Sequence record: MG852086.2
Length of the DNA: 42,031 nucleotides
From: Escherichia phage vB_EcoS-Ro145clw
Strand: one strand, 5' to 3'
Of this stretch, positions 32,333 to 42,031 are shown one piece after another (position 1 is the first letter of the stretch; each line of letters begins with the position of its first letter). Under the pieces are notes generated by a model. The model ran no database searches. It saw nothing but the letters and a program-made list of their open reading frames with translations, and was not told the origin of the DNA. Both the position numbers and the translations under genes were made by a program.

Positions 32333-32641
32333 TTGGATAAACTTACTGAAACAGTGACAGGCTGGCTTCTGGCTGCCGCACTCGCCGGAGGGGTAATCGG
32401 ACTACGACAACATAAGTCCGCTATTTCCGGCCCTATTGACGGATTCTGCTTTATTGCAACTGGCTTCACCTGCGCCGTATTTGGTGCGCCCCTCGCCGCT
32501 CAATGGTTTGGAATCACGGGCGAGCGCGAAATCGCTGGCCTTGGCTTCATTATCGCTATTCTCTGGATGCCTATCTATTCCCGTCTCTCCGGTATCGTCG
32601 CTGGAGAATACATCGCACGTCGAGGAGGCACAGATGAATGA
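32333..32641 (+). CDS. holin (putative, about 3 transmembrane segments)
   Basis: 102 aa, TTG start with SD GGAGGA 6 nt upstream; three hydrophobic segments and charged C-terminus; immediately upstream of endolysin cassette. Confidence 0.5.
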   Translation: MDKLTETVTGWLLAAALAGGVIGLRQHKSAISGPIDGFCFIATGFTCAVFGAPLAAQWFGITGEREIAGLGFIIAILWMPIYSRLSGIVAGEYIARRGGTDE

Positions 32642-32906
32642 GTTATTCTGGTTCGGCGGTATGCTGGCAATCGGAGGCACATCGCTGTTTAATGTGTATC
32701 ACCCCAGCGTGGACGACGGGCTATTCGGTCGGGTGCTCTATATCCTGACCGCTATTGTCTGCGCCGCCGGATGTATCCACCTGTTACAGGGCAGTATGTC
32801 ACCTACGCTGCCTGAGACATTAATCACATTAGTTGCGCTGCGTCAGATTCGTCATGCGTGGCTGTCGTACGGAGGACATAAGCGTGTCTCGAAACATTTC
32901 AGATAA
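32634..32906 (+). CDS. second small membrane protein of the lysis cassette (holin/antiholin-like, putative)
   Basis: 90 aa from ATG 32634 with SD GAGGAGG 5 nt upstream; two hydrophobic segments. Confidence 0.4.
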   Translation: MNELFWFGGMLAIGGTSLFNVYHPSVDDGLFGRVLYILTAIVCAAGCIHLLQGSMSPTLPETLITLVALRQIRHAWLSYGGHKRVSKHFR

Positions 32907-33372
32907 TGGGCTGCATTTCACCGCCGCGTTCGAGGGGTTCCGCGGGGCCGCCTACCGCGCTACGCCGAACGAGAAGTACCTGACGATAGGCTATGGGCAC
33001 TACGGGCCGGACGTAACACCTGGCAAGACCATCACCCCCGGGCAAGGCCTCCTGCTACTTAATCGTGATATGGCTAAGGCTGCAGCTGCGGTTGATGCTG
33101 CAGCGCACCATTCGCTGACACAGGCACAGTTCGACGCTGTGTGTGACCTGGTCTATAATGCAGGTGCAGGTGTGATTGCAGCTACCACCGGCACGGGTAA
33201 GGCGCTGCGCTCGGGGGATATTGCAACGCTGCGGGCTAAGCTGGCGCTGTTTATCAACCAGAACGGCAAGCCGTTACTCGGCCTGCGGCGCCGTACTGCC
33301 GGACGTCTTGCACTGTTCGACGGTAAACTGTGGCAGGAGGCCGAGGCTATTGGGCGCGCGGTGAAAGGTTGA
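32884..33372 (+). CDS. endolysin, T4-lysozyme-like glycoside hydrolase (GH24)
   Basis: 162 aa from GTG 32884 with SD GGAGGA 7 nt upstream; FEGFRGAAYRATPNEKYLTIGYGH matches the lysozyme catalytic Glu ... TIGxGH motif. Confidence 0.75.
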   Translation: MSRNISDNGLHFTAAFEGFRGAAYRATPNEKYLTIGYGHYGPDVTPGKTITPGQGLLLLNRDMAKAAAAVDAAAHHSLTQAQFDAVCDLVYNAGAGVIAATTGTGKALRSGDIATLRAKLALFINQNGKPLLGLRRRTAGRLALFDGKLWQEAEAIGRAVKG

Positions 33373-33469: not shown

Positions 33470-33491
33470 ATCTATTTTCTGTAATGACTAG

Positions 33492-38907: not shown

Positions 38908-39959
38908 GCAAGCTATCGCAGATGATTATCAGCCATCAAATATGGCTACAGAGACTAGGAACGCAAACAGCGTCGCTGTCCGTCCCCTTCGTCAATAAGA
39001 TGCGTGCGGAGGTGCGCGACGCGGTGCTTAAGTTCGGTGACGACGCGCGCACAGTGAAGAAGCTGAATAAAATGCTGACAAGCCTGGATGGCGTGCTGGA
39101 TGACGTCACCGGCGATTGGAAGAGCACGATAGAGAAGAGCCTTCGCGAGATTGCCGACTACGAGAATAAGTGGTTTATCCATACGCTGGAGGCCAACACG
39201 AAGCCGAAAACGTTTATTACCGGACCTACGGCAGAAGAACTGTGGTCGCGTATCAAGTTCGCACCACTGGCGATGGGTAACTCACCTGTCGGCGTTATGG
39301 ACCTGATGTCAGGCTGGGCGCAGACCGAGCGTAACCGCCTTGTGCGCGGCGTACAGACCGGCTTTGTGCAGGGGCAGACAACCCACCAAATTGTCTCTGC
39401 CGTTGTGGGCCCCGGTGGCCTGGCCGATATATCTGAGCGCAACGTAATGACGGTAGTCCGAACAGCAGTGAGTCACGTATCGAACACGGCGCGAGACTCT
39501 GTGTACGACAGCAACAGCGATATTGTGAGCAAATATCAGTGGGTATCTACGCTCGACAGCCGTACTTCGACTGTATGTAAGTCGCGCGACGGCCAGAAAT
39601 ATGACATAGGTAGAGGGCCGATGCCCCCCGCCCATCCGAACTGCCGCAGTACCACTATCCCGGTAATCGAAGATGACTTCCTGGACTTTCTCGACGAGGG
39701 GGCTAAGCGGGCGGCTAAGGGTGCGGACGGCGGTACTCAGGTAAGCGCAGACACCACCTATTACGAGTTCCTGAAGCAACAACCGGCATGGTTTCAGGAC
39801 CAGGCGCTCGGCCCTGTTCGCGGTAAGATTTTCCGCGGCAGCGGTATATCGCCGGAAGAGTTTCGCGTAATATCTGTAGATGGTTTCGGGAATCCGCTCA
39901 CGCTTAAGCAGATGGCGGAACTCGATAAACGTGTTGCTGATTATCTGAAAGGGGAATAA
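38904..39959 (+). CDS. head morphogenesis protein (Mu F / SPP1 gp7-like)
   Basis: 351 aa; QWVSTLDSRTSTVCKSRDGQKY resembles the conserved Mu-F core; ATGA overlap with portal. Confidence 0.6.
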   Translation: MSKLSQMIISHQIWLQRLGTQTASLSVPFVNKMRAEVRDAVLKFGDDARTVKKLNKMLTSLDGVLDDVTGDWKSTIEKSLREIADYENKWFIHTLEANTKPKTFITGPTAEELWSRIKFAPLAMGNSPVGVMDLMSGWAQTERNRLVRGVQTGFVQGQTTHQIVSAVVGPGGLADISERNVMTVVRTAVSHVSNTARDSVYDSNSDIVSKYQWVSTLDSRTSTVCKSRDGQKYDIGRGPMPPAHPNCRSTTIPVIEDDFLDFLDEGAKRAAKGADGGTQVSADTTYYEFLKQQPAWFQDQALGPVRGKIFRGSGISPEEFRVISVDGFGNPLTLKQMAELDKRVADYLKGE

Positions 39960-40420
39960 TGATGGGCTTTTTCAAAATTACTGATGTACCGTCGCGCCGC
40001 GTAGTCCAGTTTGCCCGTGTGTCTGGCTCTGGCGAGAACGTGGTGTTTATTGATGATGAAAGTGAACTGGGTACTCCTGTAGACGATATGCCGTTTGCCG
40101 ACAAGACCGGTATTGCGCTACCAGCGGCGGGTATGCTTTACGAGATTCCGTATCTGGCTGATGCAGGTGATGTTTATTTCTCGGTACAACCTAAAGATGC
40201 AGAACTGACAGACGGCAGCGCGACTATCACTGTCGAAGTTAAGGCGGGTAAAGCCCCCTATGCGCTGGCATGGTACAAAGACGGCAAGGAAGTGGTAAAT
40301 GCCCCGGAAGAGGCTTTGTCACTGACGGTTAACGCCGCGGGTGAATACTTCGTTAAAGTTACTGATGCCAATGGAGTGGAGGCGGTTAGCAAAGCGGCGA
40401 AGGTTACTAAGCCAGAATGA
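39959..40420 (+). CDS. Ig-like domain protein (structural accessory, putative)
   Basis: 153 aa; C-terminal YALAWYKDGKEV...AGEYFVKVTDANG Ig-like pattern similar to 1720..2070. Confidence 0.5.
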   Translation: MMGFFKITDVPSRRVVQFARVSGSGENVVFIDDESELGTPVDDMPFADKTGIALPAAGMLYEIPYLADAGDVYFSVQPKDAELTDGSATITVEVKAGKAPYALAWYKDGKEVVNAPEEALSLTVNAAGEYFVKVTDANGVEAVSKAAKVTKPE

Positions 40421-40423
40421 TAA

Positions 40424-40450
40424 AAGGCCCCATTATGGGGCCTTAGTTTT
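40424..40450. terminator. bidirectional terminator between convergent genes
   Basis: AAGGCCCC ATTAT GGGGCCTT with T-run on the plus side and A-rich on the other; variant of the recurring hairpin. Confidence 0.55.
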
Positions 40451-40673
40451 AAACTTCCACGTCTATCACCAAATCATCAGGCATGGTTATGACTATTTTA
40501 TCGTTTTCATAGAACGGGCTAAGAGGCTCATTTTCAGGCTGCAAACGTAAAGTTAGCTTTTTATCACCAAAATAATCTATGTAACGAACCCAGTACCACT
40601 CGTCGAATACCTGTACCTTTTCTCCGGGGCGTACATCTCTAGCCTTCTTTTGATTCGTAAATCTAATCGGCAT
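40449..40673 (-). CDS. hypothetical protein (74 aa), minus-strand single-gene island
   Basis: SD AGGAGG upstream; own promoter (site B) and terminator. Confidence 0.45.
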   Translation of the reverse strand: MPIRFTNQKKARDVRPGEKVQVFDEWYWVRYIDYFGDKKLTLRLQPENEPLSPFYENDKIVITMPDDLVIDVEV

Positions 40674-40698
40674 AAATACCTCCTGTTTAAGTTAACTG

Positions 40699-40727
40699 AA
40701 TAGTACCCTACTATATTGGGGTGTGCA
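40699..40727 (-). promoter_or_regulatory. sigma70-like promoter TTGCAC-N17-TACTAT with AGTAG-GGTA-CTATT (site B)
   Basis: Minus strand reads TTGCACACCCCAATATAGTAGGGTACTATTCAG; near-identical to site A. Confidence 0.5.
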
Positions 40728-40794
40728 AACTATTTGTTTATGTATTCCAGTTATTCCGCTCAATTGTAAATGTTGGAATAAACTATTCGAATAG

Positions 40795-40823
40795 TTGACT
40801 TTTCACTGAAAATGTGCTAAGCT
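40795..40823 (+). promoter_or_regulatory. sigma70-like promoter TTGACT-N17-TAAGCT with TG extended -10, preceded by palindrome CTATTCGAATAG
   Basis: TTGACTTTTCACTGAAAATGTGCTAAGCT; perfect 12 bp palindrome at 40783..40794. Confidence 0.45.
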
Positions 40824-40829
40824 CCACCT

Positions 40830-41026
40830 GAGCTTGTGAAGTATGAACAAGCGACCGCGGCGCGGGCAGGTAACGGAGCGGGACGTAAGTCCTGAGTGTA
40901 GTTACGCTGACGCGTTCGGAAGGGCCATACTCTATTGCTTGTGTAAAAAGTAACGGGTTTACTGAGATTACGCCGTTTCTATGTTTAAATGATAAGGCCT
41001 AGCGCCCCGCTTTATGGCGGGGCTTT
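40830..41026 (+). ncRNA. candidate small non-coding transcript (about 200 nt) between promoter and terminator
   Basis: No ORF with SD longer than about 36 codons; bounded by promoter 40795..40823 and hairpin GCCCCGC TTTATG GCGGGGC TTT at 41004..41026. Confidence 0.3.
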
Positions 41027-41047
41027 ACTTATCGAGAAAGGGGAAAC

Positions 41048-41434
41048 ATGAATCTTAAAGCAACTGTCATGGCAGGAGCATGTTTCATCATCCTGGTTTA
41101 CGCACACGGCATCTACCAGTATCGCAGCGGCTGGAACGAGGGCCGGGCGAATCTCATTTCGCAGCAACAGCAGAAAGCACAAGCTGAGTTAGCGAAGAAA
41201 ACACAACGGCAGCAGCAGGATGAATCAAAGGCCGCGGCCGCTGACAACGAAGGCAAGACGAAATCAGAGGTGATTACCCGTGAAGTCGTTAAGTACATTA
41301 AAACGCCTGGTCGCAGCGTGTGCACTTTCGACCCTGAGCGCGTGCAGCTCAAGTCCCGCGCCGTCGCAAACGCCAATTCCATCCCCGGATACGACGATGA
41401 TGCAGCCGCCGTGCAAACTGGCACCGCCAAGTAG
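41048..41434 (+). CDS. i-spanin (Rz-like, putative)
   Basis: 128 aa; SD AAAGGGGA; N-terminal transmembrane segment then Gln/Lys-rich coiled-coil-like region; contains overlapping lipoprotein ORF. Confidence 0.5.
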   Translation: MNLKATVMAGACFIILVYAHGIYQYRSGWNEGRANLISQQQQKAQAELAKKTQRQQQDESKAAAADNEGKTKSEVITREVVKYIKTPGRSVCTFDPERVQLKSRAVANANSIPGYDDDAAAVQTGTAK

Positions 41435-41543
41435 CGACGCTGACGAGGATTTGGCTGTCGACGTTCAGAACGCCGAATGCGCACGGCAATTGCGCCTGAA
41501 AGTGTTCATGTTGCAGGATTACGTGAGGAATATTCTGGAATAG
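41280..41543 (+). CDS. o-spanin (Rz1-like lipoprotein, putative), overlapping Rz in the +1 frame
   Basis: GTG start with SD GAGGTG; signal peptide ending in lipobox LSAC; Pro-rich mature region; extends past the Rz stop. Confidence 0.45.
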   Translation: MKSLSTLKRLVAACALSTLSACSSSPAPSQTPIPSPDTTMMQPPCKLAPPSSDADEDLAVDVQNAECARQLRLKVFMLQDYVRNILE

Positions 41544-41625
41544 TTGCCTTGCATGTTGGAATAATTTATTCTTGACATGTAAATCCGGGTGGCCCGGGTT
41601 CCAACGTCCAGGGGACATACTGACT

Positions 41626-42031
41626 ATGAATCGTTTTTTACGTTATCCGTTCCAGGAAGAAGCTGGGGCAGAAGATAAATCCGCCGGCGGTGACGCGCCG
41701 AAAATGTTCACCGCTGAAGAAGTTCAGGCGCTGATTGAGAAAGAAGTTGCCGGGCTTAAGGCCAATCAGGAAGCATTGCTGGCGGAGAAGAAAGAAGCTG
41801 CCCGTAAAGCAAGAGAGGCTGAAGAAGAACGGCAGCGCGCACACCAGGAGGCATTAAAAGCCGCCGGTAAGATGGACGAGTTCGAAAAGACGATTCGTAG
41901 CCAGTATGACCCGGTGTTAGCAGAGAAAGATGGTCGCATCACCAAAATGGCTGAGCGCATCCTCGGCAGCGAACGTAAAGCGGTGTTAGGCTCTTTCGCT
42001 GGTGACTTTATTACCCCGGAAGCAGTAGACA
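41626..42031 (+). CDS. scaffolding protein, N-terminal part (gene runs off the window end)
   Basis: ATG 41626 with SD GGGGA; Ala/Glu/Lys-rich helical sequence; no stop before window end; frame matches the ORF entering at 1..296. Confidence 0.5.
   Translation, partial: MNRFLRYPFQEEAGAEDKSAGGDAPKMFTAEEVQALIEKEVAGLKANQEALLAEKKEAARKAREAEEERQRAHQEALKAAGKMDEFEKTIRSQYDPVLAEKDGRITKMAERILGSERKAVLGSFAGDFITPEAVD

Follow-up and report, generated by a model that had tools for sequence, protein, structure and literature searches.

A predicted two-component spanin of the 'Jersey' family, encoded by overlapping genes apart from the holin and endolysin genes of an Escherichia phage

Two overlapping genes at 41048..41434 and 41280..41543 of the window, the whole 42,031-nucleotide stretch of Escherichia phage DNA analysed here, very probably encode the two subunits of a 'Jersey' family two-component spanin in the overlapped gene arrangement. 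The assignment draws on sequence features and family matches. The genes are adjacent and overlapped, one product has a single N-terminal transmembrane helix, the other has a lipobox with no Asp at position +2, and periplasmic cysteines are present. The window is a complete, circularly permuted genome with a 100% match to MH051334 (vB_EcoS-Ro145c2YLVW; Kagunavirus, Guernseyvirinae). The spanin pair of this phage is already annotated, and its family and layout have already been described in the literature; the separation of the spanins from the holin and endolysin has likewise been published. Two-component spanins are reportedly defined by Summer et al. in 2007, alongside Kongari et al. 2018. 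Their signature pairs a type II membrane protein, helical in its periplasmic domain, with a small outer-membrane lipoprotein rich in Pro; the two genes overlap, and both proteins carry conserved periplasmic cysteines (PMC6139136).

The i-spanin gene (41048..41434, plus strand) was identified from the list of open reading frames and by PHROG 2536. It starts with ATG and codes for a protein of 128 amino acids, which PHROG 2536 matches over its full length (E 9.5e-57). A hydropathy scan detected a single hydrophobic segment in this protein, with Lys4 on its N-terminal side. The highest-scoring 19-residue hydrophobic window, ATVMAGACFIILVYAHGIY, comprises residues 5-23 (codons 41060..41116, plus strand) and has a Kyte-Doolittle mean of 1.73; this hydropathy maximum is taken as the N-terminal transmembrane segment. 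The remainder of the protein (101 residues) includes 15 Ala, 11 Gln and 10 Lys. In a single-sequence AlphaFold2 model, residues 3-64 form one helix (pLDDT 75-91) within which the transmembrane segment falls (pLDDT 78-91). A further helix was modelled at residues 69-79; pLDDT stays at 75-91 to about residue 60, residues 68-128 mostly have values below 50, and the C-terminal half of the model is of low confidence. For Jersey-type i-spanins, Kongari et al. 2018 predicted two helices and a linker with two beta strands (PMC6139136). Cys92, in the periplasmic part of the protein, is present in all 44 sequences compared. The preliminary description had placed at 41048..41434 a reading frame with an N-terminal transmembrane segment followed by a Gln/Lys-rich helical region, and that description is borne out by the hydropathy scan and the composition, with a helix predicted for the N-terminal half.

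The o-spanin gene (41280..41543, plus strand) lies in the +1 frame relative to the i-spanin gene, starts with GTG and encodes a precursor of 87 amino acids; it was recognised from the list of open reading frames and by PHROG 1267 and PHROG 5672. Residues 1-22 (41280..41345, plus strand) form a predicted lipoprotein signal peptide, made up of the n-region MKSLSTLKR, the h-region LVAACALSTLSA and the lipobox L-S-A-C ending in Cys22, whose codon is 41343..41345. Lipoprotein calls in this work are rule-based, and LSAC fits the lipobox pattern [LVI][ASTVI][GAS]C. By the +2 rule, established knowledge of Lol sorting, an outer-membrane lipoprotein has no Asp at position +2 of the mature protein. The +2 residue here is Ser, and sorting to the outer membrane is therefore predicted. 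The mature part consists of 66 residues, nine of them Pro. From the signal peptide the precursor continues through a linker rich in Pro and Ser to a strongly conserved core at the C-terminus, where Cys45 and Cys67 are located. PHROG 1267 matches residues 9-86, signal-peptide region included (E 9e-21), and PHROG 5672 matches residues 41-87 (E 1e-29); both of these families, like PHROG 2536, are labelled 'Rz-like spanin'. A further lipobox-like motif, VAAC with Cys14, occurs earlier in the o-spanin sequence. The GTG-initiated frame, the signal peptide ending in LSAC and the Pro-rich mature region had all been put forward beforehand, and each was recovered, the frame at exactly the coordinates first given and the lipobox by the rule-based scan.

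The GenBank record of this phage annotates the o-spanin as a protein of 48 amino acids starting at an ATG (41397..41543), without a signal peptide. We consider GTG 41280 to be the better start. A product of 48 residues without an export signal would be unable to reach the outer membrane, and no Shine-Dalgarno sequence precedes ATG 41397, whereas a strong one, GAGGTGAT (41267..41274, plus strand), stands 5 nt before GTG 41280, inside the i-spanin coding sequence. Across 43 distinct relatives, the eight most frequent versions of the upstream sequence all retain the GAGG core of this element. In the Jersey and Shelanagig records the o-spanin is annotated at the same position and with the same length as the GTG 41280 form, and PHROG 1267, as noted above, extends into the signal peptide. 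Exactly such a gene-caller artefact, a shortened o-spanin, was described by Kongari et al. 2018 (PMC6139136).

The start codon can also be judged from the overlap itself. The dual-coding region spans 155 nt (41280..41434, plus strand); frame 0 encodes the C-terminus of the i-spanin, and the +1 frame encodes the o-spanin signal peptide and linker. Of 20,000 synonymous recodings of the i-spanin, only 5% kept the +1 frame open, and 0.4% combined an open frame with a lipobox-like motif. Among 44 distinct related sequences, with protein identities down to 62%, the +1 frame is open in every one. A lipobox Cys is found at o-spanin residue 22 or 23 in 44/44 of these relatives, the +2 residue is S, Q, N or R and in none of them D, and Cys45 and Cys67 are invariant in all 44 sequences. 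The start codon was tallied for 43 relatives, and is GTG in 41 and ATG in two. Beyond the i-spanin stop, variation sorted by codon position in the o-spanin frame is 0.251 at position 3 against 0.089 and 0.034 at the others, which is a coding signature for the part of the gene that encodes the o-spanin only. Within the overlap, variation peaks at position 3 of the i-spanin frame, indicating that this frame dominates the constraint there. Because the substitutions in the overlap track the i-spanin frame, any selection acting on the signal peptide and linker of the o-spanin can be seen only in the retained open frame, start codon, ribosome-binding site and Cys.

The substitution pattern in the overlap would also fit a reading in which only the 48-residue frame is real and the upstream +1 'signal peptide' is an accidental product of i-spanin coding. 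This explanation is extremely improbable. Besides the pattern in the overlap, it can draw on the annotation of the short form in the deposited record and in several relatives, on PHROG 5672 being a family of 47 residues, and on a large protein collection in which the exact 48-residue protein was found and the exact 87-residue form was absent. The retention of start, open frame and lipobox Cys in all of the distinct relatives is hard to reconcile with an accident that recoding produced so rarely. A natural variant bears on the same point. In vB_VIPECOMC04 a gene for an HNH endonuclease is inserted between the two spanin genes, and the o-spanin there carries a wholly different, unrelated signal peptide, again with a lipobox Cys, directly ahead of the same mature sequence SSPAP... 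PHROG 5672 appears to have been built from shortened o-spanin forms. The form starting at GTG 41280 should replace the shortened o-spanin of the deposited record and of many Kagunavirus records.

The literature searched yielded no genetic or biochemical test of a Jersey-family spanin, so that assignment of a spanin function to the pair follows from homology within an annotated family together with diagnostic sequence features. No curated spanin model of Pfam or NCBIfam was passed by either protein, and matches were sub-threshold only. The best Pfam match of the i-spanin was DUF2514 (17.8 bits; cut-off 26), and the o-spanin showed a weak likeness to Pfam LysC (PF23793; E 0.081, 13.3 bits) and to NCBIfam P2_Rz1 (NF038368; 15.6 bits), each with a cut-off of 27 bits. 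Some other phage lipoproteins act in superinfection exclusion or receptor blocking. The two proteins might likewise be an inner-membrane protein and an outer-membrane lipoprotein with a non-lysis role of this kind, which could explain the place of the pair in the head-gene module, 7.7 kb from the lysis genes, and which would sit easily with the scores against curated models and with the literature on the family. We regard such a role as very improbable. The combination of features predicted here is the diagnostic signature by which two-component spanins are defined. Spanins are encoded by the majority of phages that infect Gram-negative hosts, with none identified in about 13% of surveyed genomes, and the spanins of T4 have been shown to be functional even though they are unlinked from t and e (PMC6139136).

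The genome also offers no other spanin candidate in a lipobox scan. A naive genome-wide scan found that three other, probably spurious, open reading frames match the lipobox pattern, against 0.7 expected in shuffled sequences. These other matches (32481-32906, 32709-32906, 4950-4828 and 9143-8994) lie out of frame in the holin genes or antisense, and they were rejected as o-spanin candidates. The reading of the pair as i-spanin and o-spanin, proposed from the letters of the DNA, is upheld by the matches to PHROG 2536 and PHROG 1267, by gapless alignments with Jersey gp09 and gp10, and by the Jersey-family features of both proteins.

If the two subunits act as the well-studied pairs do (lambda Rz/Rz1 and T4 PseT.3/PseT.2), the i-spanin would be anchored in the inner membrane and extend its C-terminal domain into the periplasm. 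The o-spanin, lipidated at Cys22 and freed of its signal peptide, would be delivered to the outer membrane and reside in its inner leaflet. By the same analogy, the periplasmic ends of the two proteins would bind each other, giving a complex that bridges the periplasm. The conserved cysteines, here seen as residues in the sequences, may link each subunit into covalent homodimers. The intact peptidoglycan mesh would restrain these complexes until the holins open the inner membrane and the endolysin (both encoded within 32333..33372) degrades the wall, freeing them to act. Disruption of the outer membrane by the complexes, probably through fusion of the two membranes, would then bring lysis to completion.

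The spanin genes are well separated from the rest of the lysis genes. A holin gene (32333..32641, plus strand) and a gene for a second holin or antiholin (32634..32906, plus strand) were assigned from PHROG 2359/2508 holins and from the GenBank annotation. The endolysin gene (32833..33372, plus strand) was assigned from the Pfam Phage_lysozyme model (E 6.4e-27) and also from GenBank. The preliminary description had put these genes about 8 kb from the spanins and had placed the spanins upstream of the scaffold gene with the o-spanin running past the Rz stop. All three statements hold: the lysis genes are confirmed and lie upstream at a distance of 7.7 kb, the start of the scaffolding gene is at 41626, and the o-spanin extends 109 nt beyond the i-spanin stop.

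Between the two loci, a terminator scan detected a bidirectional hairpin terminator (40424-40444, followed by the tail AGUUUUAAAC at 40445), which is adjoined by a small convergent gene (40449..40673, minus strand) lying between the lysis genes and the spanins. Promoter-like sites are present after the endolysin stop. Closer to the spanins are a conserved promoter-like element and a second terminator-like hairpin, both described below. From this arrangement it is reasonable to infer that the lysis functions are split over two transcription units. The spanin pair would be transcribed with the late head genes and not with the holin and endolysin, and it would lie behind its own promoter-like element, structured leader and terminator.

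Alternatively, the holin, endolysin and spanin genes may all be carried on one long late transcript by read-through or antitermination, and their separation would then have no regulatory meaning. The genes from 32333 to the tail genes are all on the plus strand, bar one small minus-strand gene, and neither terminator has a perfect tail (AGUUUUAAAC at 40445, UUUACUUAUC at 41024), which speaks for such a transcript. Set against it are the two hairpin terminators, the convergent gene and the conserved promoter-like element between the loci, and the promoter-like sites 3′ of the endolysin stop. A Q-like antiterminator was also absent from the full annotation of Bas70, a well-annotated relative. 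A single transcript seems rather unlikely. The only transcriptome paper on Kagunavirus (PMC12645636) is silent on spanin, holin and endolysin, and the literature citing Ro145c2YLVW amounted to one paper, on tailspikes.

A conserved structured RNA lies directly upstream of the spanin genes. The leader contains, in order, a promoter-like element, a three-helix hairpin, an AU-rich stretch, a terminator and the i-spanin start. The promoter-like element is of the extended -10 type (40795..40823, plus strand; TTGACT, 14 nt, TGC, TAAGCT). A strict sigma-70 scan of 39900-42031 found no promoter, and the element was recognised only through its conservation and its extended -10. Its key bases are invariant in an alignment of Kagunavirus and Jerseyvirus representatives, and the record of phage fBC-Eco01 has a predicted host promoter at the matching position. 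The three-helix structured RNA hairpin (40853..40926, plus strand) was found by fold prediction and a covariance model. The same three-helix fold was predicted for eight diverged variants of this leader, and the covariance model matched 34 of the 35 sources searched, once each. Paired cells make up 92.9% in the hairpin and 26-41% in slid controls; compensatory changes occur in nine pairs.

The third element, detected in the terminator scan, is an intrinsic-terminator-like hairpin (41004..41023, plus strand; GCCCCGC-(loop)-GCGGGGC) with the U-rich tail UUUACUUAUC starting at 41024. It ends 24 nt before the i-spanin ATG, it shows compensatory stem changes among relatives, and the fBC-Eco01 record predicts a matching terminator as well. 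No Rfam family was found at E<=1 over 40400-41700 and ARAGORN reported no tRNA or tmRNA within the window, so the leader RNA does not belong to a known family. Some relatives carry an annotated open reading frame of 36 amino acids at 40843..40953. This candidate was rejected: its ATG lies in an 11-nt indel that Jersey-type phages lack, and what the region displays is covariation of base pairs. Inspection by eye for an antiterminator pairing between the leader and a terminator arm revealed none conserved between Kagunavirus and Jerseyvirus.

The order of promoter-like element, hairpin and terminator is similar to the PR'-6S RNA-tR' layout of lambda, and a put-like antitermination leader is an alternative likeness. 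The leader RNA, about 200 nt long, might govern how far transcription reads through into the spanin and late head genes; alternatively, it could be a phage small RNA. The more specific proposal, that an undescribed cis-acting RNA gates the spanin genes separately from the holin and endolysin, is unlikely and is offered tentatively. The leader could matter more than the spanin finding, and it may bear on the timing of late genes in a widespread group of phages that are candidates for therapy.

Among known systems, the pair is closest to gp09/gp10 of Salmonella phage Jersey, the prototype of its spanin family. The i-spanin is 66% identical to Jersey gp09 over 125 amino acids (gapless, E 4e-60), and the o-spanin is 64% identical to Jersey gp10 over 87 amino acids (gapless, E 9e-39). 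The lengths (128 and 87 amino acids) and the 155-nt overlap are the same in both phages, o-spanin Cys45 and Cys67 are conserved, and in Jersey the pair likewise lies between head-decoration and scaffolding genes. The lipobox is LNGC in Jersey and LSAC here, the start codon is ATG there and GTG here, and the signal peptide and linker sequences diverge; this is ordinary divergence only. The i-spanin of K1H is 97% identical to that described here. 'Jersey' is the largest family of overlapped two-component spanins in the survey of Kongari et al. 2018, in which it lists Jersey, K1G, K1H, K1ind1-3, SETP3 and SE2 and is characterised by a 155-bp overlap, a constant o-spanin Cys45/Cys67 and LNGC-type lipobox variants (PMC6139136). 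In Escherichia phage Schulenberg, a Guernseyvirinae-like but different isolate compared here by its published description, the spanins are also apart from the holin and endolysin (PMC6763661).

More distant systems share the plan but differ in arrangement or sequence. With lambda Rz/Rz1 the pair has in common a type II inner-membrane protein, a small Pro-rich outer-membrane lipoprotein in the +1 frame and periplasmic cysteines (PMC6139136). Rz1 is fully embedded in Rz, whereas the o-spanin here continues beyond the i-spanin stop, and the lambda pair ends the S-R-Rz/Rz1 cassette, whereas the present pair is remote from the holin and endolysin. The Rz and Rz1 models of Pfam did not match the pair even at E 0.1, and homology to the lambda proteins is therefore not detectable. 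The T4 spanins PseT.3/PseT.2 are, as here, unlinked from the holin and endolysin genes t and e (PMC6139136). They belong to a different sequence family, their genes are separated and not overlapped, and a periplasmic Cys is missing from the i-spanin of T4 but invariant here (Cys92). P2 LysB/LysC share the overlapped architecture, but the P2 pair lies inside a lysis cassette. The LysC and P2_Rz1 scores of the o-spanin fall far below the 27-bit cut-offs, placing the present pair outside the P2 LysC family.

Megablast of positions 40700-42031 gave a 100% full-length match to phage vB_EcoS-Ro145c2YLVW (MH051334 / NC_073322), which is classified in Kagunavirus, Guernseyvirinae; matches also came from hundreds of records of related phages of Escherichia and Salmonella. 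The window is 42,031 nt long, against 42,145 nt for record MH051334. The scaffolding gene starts at 41626 and its remainder lies at the beginning of the window; the window is therefore the complete genome in circularly permuted form. The phage has been sequenced and annotated, the spanin pair belongs to a published family, and its separation from the holin and endolysin genes has been published too; the finding is thus already known.

The i-spanin gene (41048..41434, + strand) is an ATG-initiated ORF of 128 aa. An N-terminal transmembrane segment followed by a Gln/Lys-rich helical region had been proposed for this ORF; the protein has a single hydrophobic segment at residues 5-23 (Kyte-Doolittle mean 1.73) and a remainder rich in Ala, Gln and Lys. 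Residues 3-64 form one helix in a single-sequence AlphaFold2 model (pLDDT 75-91), which has low confidence in the C-terminal half. PHROG 2536 ('Rz-like spanin') covers the full-length protein with E 9.5e-57, and the protein aligns without gaps to gp09 of Salmonella phage Jersey (66% identity) and is 97% identical to the i-spanin of phage K1H. The best Pfam hit was DUF2514 at 17.8 bits, below the cut-off of 26.

The GTG-initiated ORF of the preliminary description was found exactly at 41280..41543 (+ strand), in the +1 frame of the i-spanin gene. It encodes 87 aa, overlaps the i-spanin gene by 155 nt and, as had been claimed, runs past the i-spanin stop, by 109 nt. A ribosome-binding sequence, GAGGTGAT, lies 5 nt before the GTG. 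The N-terminus reads MKSLSTLKR-LVAACALSTLSA-C, so that the signal peptide ends in the expected lipobox LSAC, with Ser at +2, and the mature part is Pro-rich (9 prolines in 66 residues). Residues 9-86 match PHROG 1267 (E 9e-21), and the protein is 64% identical, without gaps, to Jersey gp10. The LysC/P2_Rz1 models of Pfam and NCBIfam scored below threshold, at 13-16 bits against 27.

In a simple scan, lipoprotein-like N-termini were found on 4 ORFs genome-wide, against 0.7 in shuffled genomes; the other three ORFs were rejected as out-of-frame or antisense. The lipobox on its own is weak evidence, and the comparative evidence is stronger. When the i-spanin gene was synonymously recoded 20,000 times, the +1 frame stayed open in 5% of recodings, and was both open and endowed with a lipobox-like motif in 0.4%. 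The frame is open throughout a set of 44 distinct colinear relatives whose protein identity goes as low as 62%. Across these relatives the lipobox Cys is always residue 22 or 23 (LSAC, LASC, LNGC, LSGC, MSAC or LTSC), Asp never occurs at +2, and Cys45 and Cys67 of the o-spanin and Cys92 of the i-spanin are invariant. The start codon is GTG in 41 of 43 tallied relatives and ATG in two, and the eight commonest upstream variants all carry a GAGG core before it. In the stretch that follows the i-spanin stop, position 3 of the o-spanin frame has a nucleotide diversity of 0.251, against 0.089 at position 1 and 0.034 at position 2, a clear coding signature. Within the overlap the i-spanin frame dominates (diversity 0.213 at its third position), consistent with amino-acid changes being tolerated in the signal peptide and linker of the o-spanin. 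Comparison of 41340-41350 with loci L020-L035 of related phages placed the Kagunavirus lipobox Cys at residue 22 (TLSAC|SSS) or 23 (MLASC|SS), with no change in o-spanin length; thus a valid lipobox has been re-created one codon off inside the dual-coding overlap.

In record MH051334 the second 'putative spanin' is instead placed at 41397..41543, as a 48-aa product that begins MMQPPCK and has no export signal. No ribosome-binding site was found upstream of ATG 41397. The same short form is annotated in Bas70, XY2 and fBC-Eco01, and in MH051334, PQ850619, MN927226 and OM272052 the o-spanin is cut to 47-48 aa at an internal ATG, losing signal peptide and lipobox. Among some 15 billion collected proteins the exact 87-aa o-spanin was missing, and the 48-aa form was present under the name 'o-spanin'. 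PHROG 5672, a 47-residue family that matches residues 41-87, appears to have been built from the shortened forms. Gene callers produce exactly such a start artefact at overlapped genes (Kongari et al., PMC6139136). The 264-nt gene of the Jersey and Shelanagig annotations corresponds exactly to 41280..41543. In phage vB_VIPECOMC04 (PQ423993; locus L057, 449-1513) an HNH endonuclease gene lies between the two spanin genes, the i-spanin has an altered C-terminus (119 aa), and the o-spanin starts at a new ATG; its signal peptide, MRLPILLLVIGCYGC, is unrelated, ends in a lipobox Cys and is followed directly by the same mature sequence, SSPAP... This unrelated signal peptide before an identical mature sequence settles the question: GTG 41280 is a better start than the annotated ATG 41397. 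The corrected start is a useful by-product of the analysis. Kongari et al. discuss such a switch of architecture, of which vB_VIPECOMC04 offers a natural instance.

The remaining lysis genes are a holin (32333..32641, +, PHROG 2359), a second holin (32634..32906, +, PHROG 2508) and a lysozyme-family endolysin (32833..33372, +, Pfam E 6.4e-27). The open frame of the second holin (32436-32906, +) reaches 66 codons upstream of its annotated start, overlapping the first holin gene, and the added part has a lipobox-like LFSGC downstream of TTG or GTG codons; this extension is probably spurious. The spanin pair, put at a distance of about 8 kb in the preliminary description, begins 7.7 kb downstream, and the next gene after it is indeed the scaffolding gene (PHROG 206). 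The interval between endolysin and spanins is filled by about nine small genes and, after them, by terminase, portal, head-morphogenesis and Hoc-like genes. This separation has been published for phage Schulenberg (PMC6763661), and the same split is described in the fBC-Eco01 and Golestan papers.

That lysis functions are divided between two transcription units is plausible but unproven. Promoter-like sites occur just past the endolysin stop, a bidirectional hairpin terminator lies at 40424-40444, and a convergent gene occupies 40449..40673 (-). Next, at 40795-40823 (+), comes an extended -10 promoter-like element (TTGACT-14-TGC-TAAGCT); its key bases do not vary across Kagunavirus and Jerseyvirus, and the fBC-Eco01 record predicts a host promoter at the corresponding element. 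An intrinsic-terminator-like hairpin (41004-41023, +) lies 24 nt upstream of the i-spanin ATG. The lysis genes go unmentioned in the one Kagunavirus transcriptome paper that was found.

Two kinds of repeated site were also noted. A 19-nt direct repeat, ATGTTGGAATAA(A/T)(C/T)TATTC, at 40770-40801 and 41538-41577, holds the palindrome GAATAA-N-TTATTC and is followed by TTGAC; chance would be expected to give no such pair. The copies flank the leader-plus-spanin cassette: one lies upstream, and the other separates the o-spanin stop from the scaffolding gene and has a conserved small hairpin, CCGGGTGGCCCGG, after it. The repeat may serve as operator at two late promoters, bound by a dimeric regulator. 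A second palindrome, AATAGT-N4-CTATT, has about 11 mostly intergenic sites (including 8414, 20086, 23662, 25932, 25977, 29401, 30630, 33487, 40699 and 40790), with 20 strand-matches against 2.3 expected. It corresponds to the PHIRE 'phage promoter' consensus for fBC-Eco01 (PMC9825357). Its copies at 33487 and 40790 overlap -35-like TTGAC boxes, and in appearance the motif is closer to a palindromic binding site for a regulator than to a promoter for a phage RNA polymerase.

Within 40795-41030 (+), the promoter-like element is followed by a non-coding leader of about 200 nt that reaches to the terminator. A 36-aa leader ORF of some records was rejected, since its ATG is lost through an 11-nt indel in Jersey-type phages. 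It contains, in order, a small hairpin, a three-helix hairpin that shows covariation (about 65 nt, 40855-40919, within element 40853-40926, +), an AU-rich stretch and the intrinsic terminator. The same fold is predicted for all eight diverged leader variants, and helices 2 and 3 differ in sequence between Kagunavirus and Jerseyvirus. A covariance model built on seven Kagunavirus sequences gave a single hit in each of 34 of the 35 sources searched, every Jersey-type locus among them. In the resulting alignment, which is fitted to the model, 92.9% of cells were paired, against 26-41% with slid partners, both-sided changes occurred in 9 of 22 pairs, and the covariation score was 0.332, against 0.07 or less in slid controls. 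Compensatory changes were also seen in the terminator stem. Rfam gave no match to the leader at E<=1. In Salmonella relatives the leader is 95-98% identical, against only 77-82% for their spanin region. The layout is reminiscent of lambda PR'-6S RNA-tR' and of a put-like leader; no Q-like protein is annotated in the relative searched. The RNA may represent a phage small RNA not yet described, or it may act as a leader that regulates late genes; this uncharacterised structured element is a second useful by-product.

The Jersey family, the largest of the overlapped class, has 27 members, among them Jersey, K1G, K1H, K1ind1-3 and SETP3; a 155-bp overlap in the Jersey pair, constant o-spanin Cys at positions 45 and 67, and an unusual o-spanin lipobox, LNGC, are reported for it (PMC6139136). 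Homology to Jersey and K1H, together with the presence of all these published features, assigns the pair by sequence to this family. The conserved features read as a type II inner-membrane protein and an outer-membrane lipoprotein precursor, and the i-spanin/o-spanin interpretation is supported. By analogy with work on lambda and T4 (PMC6139136) and with the Rz/Rz1 model as generally understood, Cys22 of the o-spanin would be acylated and the processed protein would be delivered to the outer membrane. It would bind the i-spanin via the periplasmic ends, and the invariant cysteines would link subunits into disulfide dimers. The complexes would be trapped by the peptidoglycan mesh until holin and endolysin act, and once freed would disrupt the outer membrane, probably through membrane fusion. 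No experiments on any Jersey-family spanin were found in the literature, so the case for spanin function, drawn from predicted features and homology, is strong but indirect. In their distance from the other lysis genes the spanins resemble those of T4, the classical unlinked case (PMC6139136). The pair would work like lambda Rz/Rz1, yet sequence kinship to it is undetectable, the Pfam and NCBIfam hits being sub-threshold.
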